The translations under genes and the position numbers were made by a program. 18,246 bases of DNA from a virus (lineage: Duplodnaviria; Heunggongvirae; Uroviricota; Caudoviricetes): the IMG/VR virus record IMGVR_UViG_2609459834_000002, positions 1-18,246 of that record; one strand, written 5' to 3'. The first letter of the stretch is position 1; every line of letters starts with the position of its first letter. This document shows, piece by piece, positions 9,289-16,804 of the stretch. The notes under the pieces were generated by a model. The model was not told where the DNA came from. It searched no databases and was given only the letters and a program-made list of their open reading frames with translations.

Positions 9289-9509
9289 GCTGCACCTCCG
9301 AGATGCTTCATGTTTTTTCCGGAGCGAAAGGCTATAAGCGGCATACTGACGCGGTAATTACGGCCCAGCGGTTCACAAACCACCTTCTGACATTCACGGT
9401 CAACCAGGCTAACACGTAGAACATGCCCTGCAGGCGTGGTGTACCACTGACCGGGGCGAGGACAACGGAAAGTCTGATTGGTAAATCGTTTGAAAATATT
9501 CCGGATCAT
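9285..9509 (-). CDS. Hypothetical protein (74 aa), translationally coupled between Rha-like and replication genes
   Basis: ATG at 9509 overlaps the Rha stop (ATGA) and its stop overlaps the replication-gene ATG at 9288 (ATGA). No recognised domain. Confidence 0.5.
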   Translation of the reverse strand: MIRNIFKRFTNQTFRCPRPGQWYTTPAGHVLRVSLVDRECQKVVCEPLGRNYRVSMPLIAFRSGKNMKHLGGAA

Positions 9510-10063
9510 TTGCGCCCCCTTACCTCTGAAGAGTTCAGCGACGAATGAATAAGACGGGCAAGAAATGCCGCATCGTTAATTCGGTCATACAGACTTACAG
9601 CCAGAGGTGATTCAGCTTTTTCCAGCATGGGATAAAGCTGCTGCAACCAGACCTGATGAATTGATGAAATGTAGGAATAGAGAACGCTGGCGTTATGTGC
9701 AACGTCGCTCGGTACAGAGGGCTTTGAAAGCTGTTTCTCCATCTGGTTAAAGGCATTGATGTATGCCTCTTTGAACTGGGCAGCACGTTTCCCCGTGAAA
9801 CCCATAGCAAGAAACGCAAAGCCGTCGCGGGTTATTTGATAGCAAGGAAGTTTGCGAGTACCGCCGTTGGGCTGGCGTACCAAAATTGATGTCTCCGCAA
9901 AATTGCGGGCACAAAACTCTGGAGAACAATCCAAAATGCGGATCTTTTTCAGAACATCGTCATGACGTTTAGAGAAGAAGTCAGCAACAGCCAAAGAAGA
10001 TGTAACAGCCTGACCATCAACGATGGCAATTTCAGGTTGAGAGAGGGTTGGGAGAGTAGTCAT
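9506..10063 (-). CDS. Phage regulatory protein, Rha family
   Basis: Product from the internal ATG at 10063-10061 (MTTLPTLSQPEIAIVDGQAVTSSLAVADFFSKRHDDVLKKIRIL...YQITRDGFAFLAMGFTGKRAAQFKEAYINAF) matches the Rha N-terminal domain. The track ORF extends in frame to 10669; that extension is treated separately in findings. Confidence 0.75.
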   Translation of the reverse strand: MTTLPTLSQPEIAIVDGQAVTSSLAVADFFSKRHDDVLKKIRILDCSPEFCARNFAETSILVRQPNGGTRKLPCYQITRDGFAFLAMGFTGKRAAQFKEAYINAFNQMEKQLSKPSVPSDVAHNASVLYSYISSIHQVWLQQLYPMLEKAESPLAVSLYDRINDAAFLARLIHSSLNSSEVRGRK

Positions 10064-10665
10064 GGTGACAGCCCCGGTAGTCAGTTTTTTAGAAAACTCA
10101 CCACATGGGACGCCAATCACAGAGGTGGTGAGACGTACAGGGTTGGCGTTACCGGAGACTACCGAACCCGGCCCGACCGAAGTCGGCCCTGTACGCCCCA
10201 CCATAATTTGGGCGTAGCAATGCTCATGACACGAAAAAACCGCATGAGCGCGGTTATGCTCAGTAATCAATTTCAGGACGCCAATCCCGGCACCCGTTTT
10301 ATAAGGTGCCTGAACAGTGTAACGTCCCGGAATGGCAGAATCAATGTGCTGGTGGTCCTTCACACTCAACAAAATCACGCCTGAATTTCCACAAAGGACT
10401 AAAGCACTCATGCGGGTAGTCTTTGCGAAGATAGATAACGCGCTGTGTTTCTGGCTCCCAACGAATAACATGAACATAAAGTCCTCTTCCGTCACGAAAC
10501 CAGCGGTTAAGTTCCTGCACAACTCGCCCCCCACAGTCAGGTAAAGTTCTCTGTGGTTACTTACAGCCAGGTGATTTGGTAATCTGCATTCATGCCGTAA
10601 CAACAGGTGTTCAGCGACGCTGACCACCTGTTGTTGCGACAAACGGTTATTTGCCGTTAAACTGT

Positions 10666-11229
10666 TCATGCGTTAGTTTCTCCACAGACACAAAACGCCA
10701 CGACGCCCGGAGCTGCACACTCGCGGGCGTCACTCTTTTCTGGAGCGCAAAAGATTTTGTAGACCAGTGCTGCATGCTCCTGGAGCTTCGAAATTGACAG
10801 ATACAACTCATCATTAATTGCTGTCTGCTCGTGTGGCTCCACTACCCCATCTTCGATTGCCGAACGAATCTGCTTTGAGTAACTCCCGATCTGTTCGATG
10901 ACTTCCAGCAGGCGCTGGTTTATATCGGCGTTCTCTACTTCCTCAATTTCAGGAAGCGATACAAACACCCCACCAGCAGACTGTGCGACAGCATCCGCAA
11001 TGTAGTGAGTGCCAGCCGCGCGCTGTAAAATCATTGCCCATCCCAGCGGGAAAATCTGATCGCCATCTGCACGAAGGCGGTTGAATAAAGCGTTCTCTGT
11101 TACATCCAGCCACTCAGCAGCTTCAGCGTAACCCCCCGGCAACGCCGCGATAGTTTTTCTGACAGCTTTCACGTACCACTCAGGCTGTTTTTCTACTTTC
11201 CAGTGATGCTTACCCACGGTTAGCCTCAT
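10666..11229 (-). CDS. CII-like / YdaT-like regulatory protein (tentative)
   Basis: 187-codon ORF immediately downstream of the cro-like gene on the same strand, the CII position. No strong RBS at ATG 11229; an in-frame GTG at 11217 has GAGG upstream. Family assignment is by position and weak recollection. Confidence 0.45.
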   Translation of the reverse strand: MRLTVGKHHWKVEKQPEWYVKAVRKTIAALPGGYAEAAEWLDVTENALFNRLRADGDQIFPLGWAMILQRAAGTHYIADAVAQSAGGVFVSLPEIEEVENADINQRLLEVIEQIGSYSKQIRSAIEDGVVEPHEQTAINDELYLSISKLQEHAALVYKIFCAPEKSDARECAAPGVVAFCVCGETNA

Positions 11230-13565: not shown

Positions 13566-14483
13566 ATGAACAATCCGTTTTTCAAAAATATGTTGGTGTA
13601 TCGCATTAGTCGCGATTTCACCATCAACCAGGAAGAGCTGGAACAGCAGCTTGAACTATTTCGCTTCACTCCATGCGGTAGCCAGGATATGGCAAAAACC
13701 GGTTGGGTATCACCACTTGGTCAGCTGTCAGATCGCTTGCATCACACTGTCAATAATCAAGTGTTGTTGGTTATTCGCCGGGAAGAAAAAATACTGCCAT
13801 CTCCTGTCATTGCTGAAGAACTGCGCAAGCGTGTGGCGCGTCTGGAATCCGATCAGGGGCGTCGCCTCAAAAAAACTGAGAAAGATTCGCTGCGTGATGA
13901 AGTGTTGCACTCCCTGCTTCCTCGGGCGTTCTCCAAAAACTCGACTGTTAGTTTGTGGATCAACGTCACAGACGGTCTGATCATGGTTGATACAGCCAGC
14001 GCTAAACGTGCCGAAGACTCACTGGCCCTGCTTCGTAAAACTCTCGGTTCTCTCCCGGTGGTACCGCTGACTATGGAAACGCCGATCGAACTAACTATTA
14101 CCGACTGGGTTCGTTCCGGTAGTGCCCCTGCTGGCTTTAGCCTGGGTGATGAAGCCGAACTGAAAGCTATTCTTGTAGATGGCGGTATTGGACGCTTTAA
14201 AAAACAGACTTTGGTCAGTGACGAAATTCATGTGCATCTGGAAGCTGGCAAAGTAGTTACAAAGCTGTCTATCGACTGGCAACAGCGCATTCAGTTCGTT
14301 CTTTGCGATGACGGCAGCATCAAACGCCTTAAGTTCTCTAATGAGATTACAGAACAAAACGACGATATCTACCGTGATGATGCGGCTCAGCGGTTCGACG
14401 CTGACTTTGTTCTAATGACCGGCGAGCTTATCTCTCTCATTAACGGATTAACAACCTCTCTCGGCGGCGAAGCCAAGCGATAA
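13566..14483 (+). CDS. rdgC: Recombination-associated protein RdgC (prophage-encoded homologue)
   Basis: 305 aa with GAGGA RBS 8 nt upstream. Matches recalled E. coli RdgC along its length ([123 protein letters not shown]). Confidence 0.9.
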
Positions 14484-14562
14484 ACACCAGGCAGCAATTA
14501 CCCCATAAGCATGGGTTGGGTTGCTGCACTCCAAATCTGGCGAAGGTTGGTTCGGATGGCAG

Positions 14563-14817
14563 ATGAATCATATCGAATTTATTGAGAAGAACGTCAGGGA
14601 AATCCTTATAAAACAAGGCTTTTCTTCTTCAGTAGCGCAGGGGGGGGCATGGCAAGCGATTGATTTATATAAGCGCATGTCACAAGCCAGTAAAAAGGGT
14701 GCAATTTTTGATGACGTGATGAGGCATGCGAAAGCATGGGCAGATAAACAGGTTTCGAAAACTGAAGTCACGAAAAGTAAACGCAATCAACCTAAAAACC
14801 AAGGTGGTCTGTTTTAA
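14563..14817 (+). CDS. Hypothetical protein (84 aa)
   Basis: Track ORF 14521-14817 begins at TTG; trimmed to ATG 14563 (MNHIEFIEKNV...). Weak RBS. Basic C-terminus. No family recognised. Confidence 0.45.
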   Translation: MNHIEFIEKNVREILIKQGFSSSVAQGGAWQAIDLYKRMSQASKKGAIFDDVMRHAKAWADKQVSKTEVTKSKRNQPKNQGGLF

Positions 14818-14869
14818 ATATTCAGGCCAATAAGTTTGCGCGGTGCAGCGCGCCAATATGGAGAAAACC

Positions 14870-15196
14870 ATGAGCTACATTCAGACATTATCCGGTAAAA
14901 AATTTAACTACCTGACCGCCACAATCGACGATATCGATGTAGAGGATATCGCGACGGCGCTTTCCAACATCTGTCGATTCGCTGGGCATCTCCCAGAGTT
15001 CTACAGCGTGGCTCAGCACTCTGTGCTTGTAAGCCAGATTGTGCCGCCAGAGTTCGCCTTTGAAGCGCTGAAATTCGATGACTTCCAGATTGTCCACTAT
15101 GGCGGTTCTGAGGATTACGCGAAAGGTTATATCGACTGCCAAAACAACTACAACAAAGCTCTGACCGCCGCTGGCATTGGCGTGAAGGGGAAGTGA
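14870..15196 (+). CDS. HD-domain-like protein (YfbR-type 5'-nucleotidase fold), short and with the HD dyad altered; possibly degenerate
   Basis: ATG at 14870 with GGAG RBS 6 nt upstream (MSYIQTLSGKKF...). Motif CRFAGHLPEFYSVAQHS resembles the first metal-binding region of HD hydrolases, but the expected L-H-D-A motif reads EALKFDD (His replaced by Phe). The protein stops at 108 aa, against roughly 180-200 for intact HD domains. Confidence 0.45.
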   Translation: MSYIQTLSGKKFNYLTATIDDIDVEDIATALSNICRFAGHLPEFYSVAQHSVLVSQIVPPEFAFEALKFDDFQIVHYGGSEDYAKGYIDCQNNYNKALTAAGIGVKGK

Positions 15197-15197
15197 G

Positions 15198-15672
15198 ATG
15201 GCGGAGCAAACCATTTTAGACATGTGCTGCGGTTCCCGCATGTTCTGGTTCAACAAGCAGGACACCCGCGCCGTGTTCACTGATATCCGCGCCGAAGAGC
15301 ACGAGCTGTGCGACGGTCGCCGCCTGGTTATCAGTCCAGACCTGATTGCCGACTTTCGTTCACTGCCGTTCGCTGATTCTTCTTTTCCGGTTGTGGTGTT
15401 TGACCCACCGCACTTGGAGCGCGTTGGCCAGTCTGCCTGGATGGGTAAAAAATACGGGCGACTGAACAAAAAAAACGTGGCGCTCTGACTTACGCGCCGG
15501 TTTCAAAGAAGCGTTTCGGGTGCTGTGGCCACGCGGCGTACTTATTTTCAAATGGAACGAAACACAAATCCCAGTGAGCCAGATTCTGGCGCTTACAGAT
15601 GTGAAACCTGCAATTGGCCAGCGTACCGGGAAGAACGATAAAACCCACTGGATTATTTTTGTGAAGGACTAA
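15198..15672 (+). CDS. Small SAM-dependent DNA amino-methyltransferase (DPPH motif) interrupted by a +1 frameshift at an A8 tract
   Basis: Frame 0 (15198-15488, 96 aa) carries motif I LDMCCGS and motif IV FDPPH and stops at TGA 15486-15488. The +1 frame is open from 15466 to the TAA at 15670-15672, ending 3 nt before the next ATG. The only region open in both frames (15466-15485) contains the A8 run at 15468-15475. One fewer A would give a single product of about 156 aa. Confidence 0.6.
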
Positions 15673-15675
15673 CTC

Positions 15676-16230
15676 ATGACAACTAAACACCCGGCGCACG
15701 GTCCTTTATCCCTCGATCGCCTGCACCAGATACGCGAACACCTGCAGCATGATACCCAGTACTCAAACGGCGGGAACAGAGCTTATATTCTCGCTGATAT
15801 GTTGAAGGTGATTGATGAGGTGCTGGCATCGAGGAACGCAGAGCCAGTATTGCCAGATGAAAAGCCGATGCCAGAAGCGTCGAAAATGCATGCAATAGAC
15901 GCTGTAGCTGCAATCGCAGAGGTCAGAGGATGGAACGCCTGCCGCGCCGTCATGCTTAAGGCTGGCAACTCTCCGGTAACTCAGGATGGTTACGTGCTGG
16001 TCCCGAAGAAACTAACCGCTGAGAACGGCGCAAAGAGTGTGCTGTCCGGTGAGTTTTCAGAAACGAAATTTATAAACTGCCCAGAGTGTTTTGGTGATGA
16101 TGATTGCGAAACCTGCGACGGCAGCGGAAGAATTGAAATCACCGTTCCTGTCACATGGACGACCATCAAAGCTATTTGGGCTAAAGGTGTCGAGCATTTC
16201 GCAGCAGCACCGCAGCAGGAGAATGTATAA
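15676..16230 (+). CDS. Hypothetical protein with C-terminal CxxC...CxxCxGxG zinc-finger-like motif
   Basis: 184 aa, tightly packed between neighbours. Motif CPECFGDDDCETCDGSG resembles a DnaJ-type zinc-finger repeat. Otherwise unassigned. Confidence 0.6.
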   Translation: MTTKHPAHGPLSLDRLHQIREHLQHDTQYSNGGNRAYILADMLKVIDEVLASRNAEPVLPDEKPMPEASKMHAIDAVAAIAEVRGWNACRAVMLKAGNSPVTQDGYVLVPKKLTAENGAKSVLSGEFSETKFINCPECFGDDDCETCDGSGRIEITVPVTWTTIKAIWAKGVEHFAAAPQQENV

Positions 16231-16804
16231 CGTGAACAATTTAATGATCGACCTTGAGTCCATGGGCAAAAAACCGAATGCCCCTATTGTCTCCATTGGT
16301 GCCGTATTCTTCGATCCGCAAAGCGGTGATCTTGGTCAGGAGTTTTACACCGCCGTTAATCTTGAAAGCGCTATGGAGCAGGGAGCTGTGCCGGATGGTG
16401 ACACTATTCTGTGGTGGTTAAGACAAAGCTCAGAAGCACGATCAGCAATCTGTGTTGATGATGCGATGCCGATATCGTCTGCCCTATCTGAACTGAGCCA
16501 TTTCATTAATCGGCATTCTGATAACCCAAAATATTTAAAAGTTTGGGGCAATGGAGCTACTTTCGACAACGTTATATTGCGCGGCGCATATGAGCGCGCC
16601 GGCCAGCTTTGCCCGTGGCAATTTTGGAACGATCACGACGTCAGAACCATCGTCACATTAGGCAGAGTTGTGGGTTTCGATCCAAAGCGAGATATGCCAT
16701 TCGATGGGGTTGCACATAACGCACTGGCCGATGCGCGACATCAAGCAAAATACGTGTCCGCGATCTGGCAGAAGTTGATTCCGGCCACCAGCAGAGACCT
16801 GTAA
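16223..16804 (+). CDS. DnaQ-like 3'-5' exonuclease (DEDD family)
   Basis: Exo I motif LMIDLESMG, later H-x4-D-type motif (GVAHNALADARHQAKY), about 190 aa. Start is ambiguous among ATG 16223, GTG 16232 (best-spaced relative to AGGAG at 16217-16221) and ATG 16244. Track ORF 16091-16804 is an in-frame upstream extension. Confidence 0.8.
   Translation: MYNVNNLMIDLESMGKKPNAPIVSIGAVFFDPQSGDLGQEFYTAVNLESAMEQGAVPDGDTILWWLRQSSEARSAICVDDAMPISSALSELSHFINRHSDNPKYLKVWGNGATFDNVILRGAYERAGQLCPWQFWNDHDVRTIVTLGRVVGFDPKRDMPFDGVAHNALADARHQAKYVSAIWQKLIPATSRDL

Follow-up and report, generated by a model that had tools for sequence, protein, structure and literature searches.

The open reading frame (ORF) at positions 14870-15196 (+) of the window (the whole 18,246-nt stretch of viral DNA analyzed here) encodes a chimeric protein of 108 aa, in which the N-terminal part of a YfdR-family HD phosphohydrolase is fused to the C-terminal end of an Ead/Ea22-like protein. 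Judging from its sequence, it is very probably a pseudogene that arose by deletion and fusion within an E. coli prophage, in the early-left accessory operon. A preliminary description had offered two readings of this ORF, namely a pseudogene remnant in a recently rearranged module, or a noncatalytic variant with the HD dyad replaced and a short C-terminus. The former is borne out, as intact relatives are 175-180 aa long with an HD dyad and the 108-aa form occurs in one strain. The latter is not, since the hydrolase homology ends at 15071, and what had appeared to be a short C-terminus is a foreign, Ead/Ea22-like stretch of 40 residues fused in frame at 15071|15072.

The ORF runs from an ATG at 14870 to a TGA at 15194-15196 and is preceded by a GGAG located 8 nt before the ATG, while GenBank places the start at an upstream GTG (14843), resulting in a product of 117 aa (KDV93544.1). 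It contains the motifs RFAGH (residues 36-40) and YSVAQHS (residues 45-51), followed by K-F-D-D at residues 68-71, where homologues have M-H-D-A, and its stop codon abuts a methyltransferase gene, the ATG of which (15198) is one base past that stop. In all of these respects (length, the three motifs, and the abutting methyltransferase) the ORF had been described correctly at its coordinates. Searches of the 108-aa protein against Pfam and NCBIfam gave no significant match. PHROGs, on the other hand, divides the protein, assigning residues 1-67 to PHROG 318 and residues 77-108 to other PHROGs, the latter through weak matches to the C-termini of two families without an assigned function, PHROG 1138 and PHROG 20344. 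Promoter, terminator and Rfam scans found nothing relevant inside 14800-15250. Two antisense ORFs, 14888-15469 (-) of 193 aa and 14904-15209 (-) of 101 aa, cross the fusion junction and reach into the methyltransferase gene; as they span unrelated modules, they are presumably spurious.

The homology of the N-terminal part to HD hydrolases, which had been noticed before, is far above chance (PHROG 318, E = 6.9e-36; 97% DNA identity over 235 nt). By blastn, the similarity to intact genes encoding 179-aa proteins (L004-L011, L017, and L050) begins at 14837, in the leader, and the 235 nt at that identity (14837-15071) comprise the leader with the ribosome-binding site of a yfdR-like gene (14837-14869, +) and the 5' remnant of the YfdR-family hydrolase gene itself (14870-15071, +; codons 1-67 and the first base of codon 68). 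The DNA match then stops exactly at 15071 (codon 67). Both the N-terminus and the leader are thus homologous to those of the YfdR family (PHROG 318), from which this part of the chimera descends. At the protein level, residues 1-67 are 100% identical to the hydrolases of L050 and L017, and the 5-6 nt differences from these two genes are all synonymous, which suggests that the sequence diverged under selection and that the deletion is recent.

The match to PHROG 318 (“deoxyribonucleoside 5' monophosphate phosphatase”) is restricted to residues 1-67, which align with profile positions 97-163 of 296. The closest intact relative among the homologues listed, P0003 (179 aa, Citrobacter), spans positions 97-274 (E = 8.2e-94), a full-length family match that is absent in the chimera. 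Since intact YfdR-type proteins score under the Pfam cut-off for YfbR-like proteins, PHROGs and direct homologues were needed to assign the family. A search of 5.8 billion proteins returned 1,416 homologues of the 108-aa protein, with source names such as “HD family hydrolase” or “5'-deoxynucleotidase YfbR-like”; almost all of those listed cover just 61-68% of the query, in its N-terminal part. Among the best 120 of the 1,416, 99 are 170-189 aa long and 97 have the HD dyad after the EAL motif. In the same 120, EAL is followed by MHDA in 90 and by LHDA in four, whereas KFDD is found solely in the window's own protein. Widespread homologues of the same length with FD for HD, which would have spoken for a distinct intact family, were therefore not seen.

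The family can be tied to a protein of a known prophage. The cryptic prophage CPS-53/KplE1 of E. coli K-12 encodes YfdR, an HD-domain protein of 178 aa annotated as a 5'-deoxynucleotidase, which is 67% identical to P0003 over 178 aa, and 67% identical to the chimera over about the first 67-70 residues. The operon position is also alike, with early-left accessory genes lying upstream of a TorI/PrtN-like excision factor at both loci. In contrast to YfdR, however, the window copy ends at codon 67 and has lost the HD dyad and everything after it, and its upstream neighbors are rdgC and a PHROG 4439 ORF rather than yfdP-yfdQ.

Other broken members of the YfdR family were also noted among the homologues (P0002, P0004, P0022, P0032, and P0091). 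Their breaks fall within codons 66-72, at the HD motif, and take several forms (EALM|PDNS, EALMH|NVMM, an in-frame deletion of residues 67-96, and two frameshifts). These codons could be a break hot spot, or there could be selection against activity; the sample of truncated homologues is biased in this respect, being ranked by N-terminal score.

The remainder of the ORF (15072-15196, +) consists of the 3' end of an Ead/Ea22-like gene, its stop codon and a TGAGATG joint, and corresponds approximately to residues 71-110 of a 110-aa C. braakii protein. Bases 15072-15201 are 96.9% identical to that gene in C. braakii ATCC 51113 (L016, 3729-3858), 96.1% to a viral contig (L017), 95.4% to a metagenome contig (L013), and 84% to C. 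freundii (L012). In the protein, residues 69-108 share 93-95% identity with the last 40 residues of Ead/Ea22-like proteins of Citrobacter prophages (95% for residues 70-110 of the L016 protein, from which the tail differs by three synonymous changes and one non-synonymous change). When used alone as a query, the 41-residue tail retrieved only proteins with Ead-type C-termini, four in number, which are short ORFs or C-terminal fragments of Citrobacter or metagenomic origin. A tblastn search of the phage collection with the same tail gave no match, and the tail was found in the large protein database and in IMG/VR.

The tail is present in 13 loci (L012, L013, and L016-L026), each time as the C-terminus of variable proteins (...AELEARTVAVKQFDDFQIVHYGG...GIGVKGE). 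These proteins share an architecture in which a hypervariable middle separates a conserved N-terminus (MTALNKQALR) from a conserved C-terminus (...AEKRIAELEARTVAVKQFDDFQIVHYGGSEDYAKGYIDCQNNYNKALTAAGIGVKGE), and the conserved C-terminal tail (...KQFDDFQIVHYGGSEDYAKGYIDCQNNYNKALTAAGIGVKGE) is present in the chimera. The highly conserved C-terminus of the Ead/Ea22-like proteins measures 45 aa. All four parent proteins tested (L016, L017, L019, and L023) score above the cut-off of PF13935 (Ead_Ea22), with 35-76 bits versus 27. This score comes from their N-terminal and coiled-coil part, which the Pfam model covers and the chimera lacks. What the chimera shares with the Ead/Ea22-like family of lambdoid and P22-like phages is the C-terminal 40 residues, and it has no PF13935 match itself. 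At 15166-15202, the final ~32 nt together with TGAGATG are common to loci with different downstream genes (L004, L076, and L083), as expected of a mosaic recombination joint.

A three-way alignment places the breakpoint at 15071|15072. To its left, the window agrees with the hydrolase gene at 41 of 42 positions and with the Ead gene at 14 of 42; to its right, the agreement is 44 of 44 with the Ead gene and 13 of 44 with the hydrolase gene. The two homologies abut with neither overlap nor gap, the microhomology amounts to 0-1 nt, and the joint is in frame through a hybrid AAA codon for K68 (15071-15073, +), whose first base belongs to the hydrolase ATG (M68) and whose last two bases belong to the Ead CAA (Q70). 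A crossover at the hexamer TGAAGC, which occurs in both parents, was ruled out, because the window keeps the hydrolase bases GCTGA past the hexamer. The F-D-D of the chimera derives from the Ead sequence KQFDDFQ. The HD dyad is thus absent because the sequence from 15072 onward is that of a different gene, not through a point substitution, and the alignment of F-D with H-D is a coincidence, since F-D-D was brought in with the fused Ead sequence.

What the fusion removed can be read from the catalytic residues of the family. The family profile gives a full-length match to PDB 2GZ4 (Atu1052; E = 7.8e-19), and the intact family matches YfbR, the E. coli HD-domain 5'-deoxyribonucleotidase (PDB 2PAQ), around the HD...E...D segment, where hhalign and HMMER align H69, D70, E73, and D78 with YfbR H68, D69, E72, and D77. 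In the family alignments, H69 and D70 do not vary, and D78 is invariant in one alignment (A3) and at least 90% conserved in the other (A4). At the position of the HD dyad (YfbR H68-D69) the window has the Ead-derived F69-D70, and neither the substrate residue D78 (YfbR D77) nor the distal aspartate D119 (in VKYADL; YfbR D137) has a counterpart. The chimera does retain R36 and F37 of the R-F substrate motif and the first metal-ligand histidine, H50 (in SVAQHS), which is invariant in the family. We take the R-F and VAQH motifs to resemble R18-W19 and H33 of YfbR; H50 is equated with H33 by motif similarity and by its spacing from R-F/R-W, not by a significant alignment.

In YfbR, the metal ligands are H33, H68, D69, and D137, and the enzyme is inactive when these ligands, R18, W19 or D77 are substituted (PMC8177086). 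The chimera has lost four of the five YfbR-type catalytic residues that were mapped, among them three of the four metal ligands. As H69, D70, E73, D78, and D119 (the equivalents of YfbR H68, D69, E72, D77, and D137) are all missing, the chimera cannot be an HD phosphohydrolase. The fold is similarly incomplete. The intact family was modeled with seven predicted helices (mean pLDDT 59.3, based on 28 closely related sequences in a shallow alignment), of which the chimera keeps ~2.5 and lacks about 4.5; its own structure, predicted from the single sequence, has a mean pLDDT of 43.7.

Both parents of the fusion are found together elsewhere. L017 carries them in the same order and orientation, and relative to it the window lacks 1,426 bp, an interval that holds the 3' part of the hydrolase gene, ORFs of 58, 84, and 117 aa, and the 5' part of the Ead gene. 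The same hydrolase-then-Ead order is present in L022, downstream of an rdgC stretch with 95% identity to that of the window, and L050 has an intact hydrolase gene and an intact A7 methyltransferase gene (see below) in the same operon order. In the whole window, tblastn in any frame found no trace of hydrolase residues 68-179, of the Ead N-terminus, or of the intervening genes (best E = 0.005 or weaker). Alignment to intact HD hydrolases, which had been proposed as a means to decide between a frameshift and a deletion, therefore points to a deletion of the missing half. A frameshift is ruled out, as is the survival of hydrolase remnants further downstream in the window, for which a check had also been suggested. 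The ORF accordingly has the marks of a deletion-derived remnant: its homology ends abruptly, syntenic homologues elsewhere are intact, and the other frames hold no trace of the missing part.

We propose that the ancestral operon contained, in order, an intact gene for a 179-aa YfdR-type HD 5'-deoxynucleotidase, two or three small genes, and an Ead/Ea22-like gene. A single non-homologous break-and-join event with 0-1 nt of microhomology would then have removed ~1.4 kb, taking with it hydrolase codons 68-179, the small genes, and all of the Ead-like gene except its last 40 codons. Each break would have fallen after the first base of a codon, giving the in-frame joint. The size and content of this deletion are approximate, because outside the two fused pieces none of the sequenced relatives matches the window on both sides, and the ancestor had to be pieced together from mosaic relatives (L017, L022, and L050). 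The resulting hybrid retains the ribosome-binding site and start of the hydrolase gene and the Ead stop codon one base before the next ATG, and because these start signals and this stop/start joint are kept, it is probably still transcribed and translated, and its translational coupling to the downstream genes is likely preserved. Its product nevertheless probably lacks a function.

A different history could lead to the same product, namely illegitimate recombination between two co-resident phages or prophages. The region is indeed highly mosaic: the window shares its rdgC with L022, its hydrolase allele with L017 and L050, its methyltransferase with L050, L076, and L014, and its right arm with L004, and the Ead tail with the TGAGATG joint is conserved beside different neighbors. 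We nonetheless consider such an exchange unlikely, as the hydrolase and Ead genes already follow one another in a single operon in L004, L017, and L022, which makes an internal deletion more parsimonious, and the junction offers no homology by which an exchange could have been driven. It is less probable still that the ORF is an assembly artefact, i.e., a chimeric contig joining two real genes. The form is known from one strain only, and the window and the one other contig that carries it, from the Logan collection, are 100% identical and may share reads, but misjoins arise at shared repeats, and the parents share 0-1 nt at the joint. The joint is also colinear, with the orientation seen in the natural gene order, and the GenBank and Logan assemblies give the same sequence.

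Two further alternatives would grant the protein a role of its own. YfdR is reported to be a structural homologue of YfbR with a weaker nucleotide affinity, and it binds domain I of DnaA independently of any demonstrated catalysis (PMC4776307), so that a fusion protein could conceivably have retained, or newly acquired, a non-enzymatic role, for example in DnaA binding or through the Ead tail. The in-frame, probably translated joint would fit such a role, but an in-frame joint is expected by chance in one case out of three, the fusion occurs once with no conservation, and only the ~2.5 helices mentioned above are kept; we regard this possibility as very improbable. The same low probability applies to the related, speculative idea that the in-frame fusion is expressed and retained for a non-catalytic activity of its N-terminal part such as DnaA binding, and to the possibility that breaks at the HD motif, as in the broken family members above, are favored because the nucleotidase activity is costly to the lysogen. 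Finally, an intact family of short, noncatalytic HD-like proteins with FD for HD might be suspected from the open frame, the preserved start signals and the perfect conservation of the N-terminal 67 residues. We give it practically no credence, since none of the 1,416 matches has the same architecture, residues 69-108 are Ead/Ea22-like, and the DNA homology to the hydrolases breaks off at 15071.

The earlier suspicion that two adjacent accessory genes in this operon are degenerate is supported by the gene immediately downstream of the fusion. It encodes a small SAM-dependent DNA methyltransferase (15198-15672, +; PHROG 11564/954) and is split by a +1 frameshift into ORFs of 96 and 50 aa. Homologue alignment and three-frame translation trace the frameshift to one extra A in a homopolymer tract (15468-15475, +), which has eight A residues in the window and is in frame with seven. 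Across 79 viral homologues, the tract is A7 in ~57, A6 in three (including Salmonella phage vB_SosS_Oslo), A8 in one (L047), and an interrupted run in ~15. L050 and L076 carry the in-frame A7 allele with flanks identical to those of the window, and besides L047 and the window, A8 is found in an E. coli locus (L014), where the gene is annotated as frameshifted. The frame is thus broken by a homopolymer that varies in length among homologues, and this variation could represent a slippage hot spot, phase variation, or homopolymer sequencing error.

Further downstream, an ORF of 184 aa (15676-16230, +) shares its N-terminus (MTTKHPAHGPLSLDRLHQIREHL...) with differently sized proteins in L016, L017, and L050. 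Its C-terminal half differs and has a zinc-finger-like CxxC...CxxCxGxG motif, so that by its sequence it appears to be a further mosaic protein, in which the head is conserved and the body varies.

The chimera is rare. The exact 108-aa protein was found in a single contig of the Logan collection (SRR1186799), with 9,377 nt at 100% identity to the window, and in GenBank under the accession given above, from E. coli 2-156-04_S1_C3, the only strain in which the chimera is found. As the Logan contig probably derives from the strain or read set behind the window itself, it is not an independent confirmation. A degenerate pattern of the junction gave 0 matches in metagenome_contigs and viral_contigs, and none of the phage records or the 5,426 complete E. 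coli genomes searched crosses the junction. Similarly, no complete E. coli genome contains 80% or more of 14400-16300. The host flank (a DUF2713 gene, zur, yjbJ, and dinF) is 100% E. coli, and the fused modules, like the other early-left modules of the prophage, are nearest to Citrobacter prophages. One related Citrobacter prophage (L004) also adjoins zur-yjbJ-dinF, and the region 9800-12327 of L003 was noted alongside this comparison of prophage and host flank. At its right end, the prophage has a PrtN/TorI-like factor without an integrase next to it, an arrangement also seen in KplE1.

The decay of prophage genes and the presence of mosaic joints are general features of lambdoid phages. The present locus resembles other cases of lambdoid decay in its non-homologous junction within coding sequence, its conserved joint at the flanking gene boundary, and its adjacent homopolymer frameshift. 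It is a textbook case, its one unusual aspect being that the breakpoint can be located exactly and both parents identified. It represents ordinary prophage gene decay, with no new enzyme variant or family. The GenBank entry, currently a hypothetical protein, should be flagged as a yfdR-family remnant with an Ead/Ea22-like 3' end, and should not be counted as a new HD-like family or a “noncatalytic HD variant”. The import beyond annotation is small, yet the locus provides a clean example of accessory-operon decay, in which a microhomology-free internal deletion that stays in frame lies beside a homopolymer frameshift, and it illustrates that a chance alignment of F-D with H-D can mimic an active-site substitution.

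Elsewhere in the prophage, two Rfam matches at gathering level were observed, a C4 antisense RNA at 10121-10208 (-) with 82 bits and an isrK Hfq-binding sRNA at 10233-10309 (-) with 60 bits. Both lie inside an ant/Rha-like ORF (9506-10669, -), and the region looks like a P1/P7-type immunity-I module.
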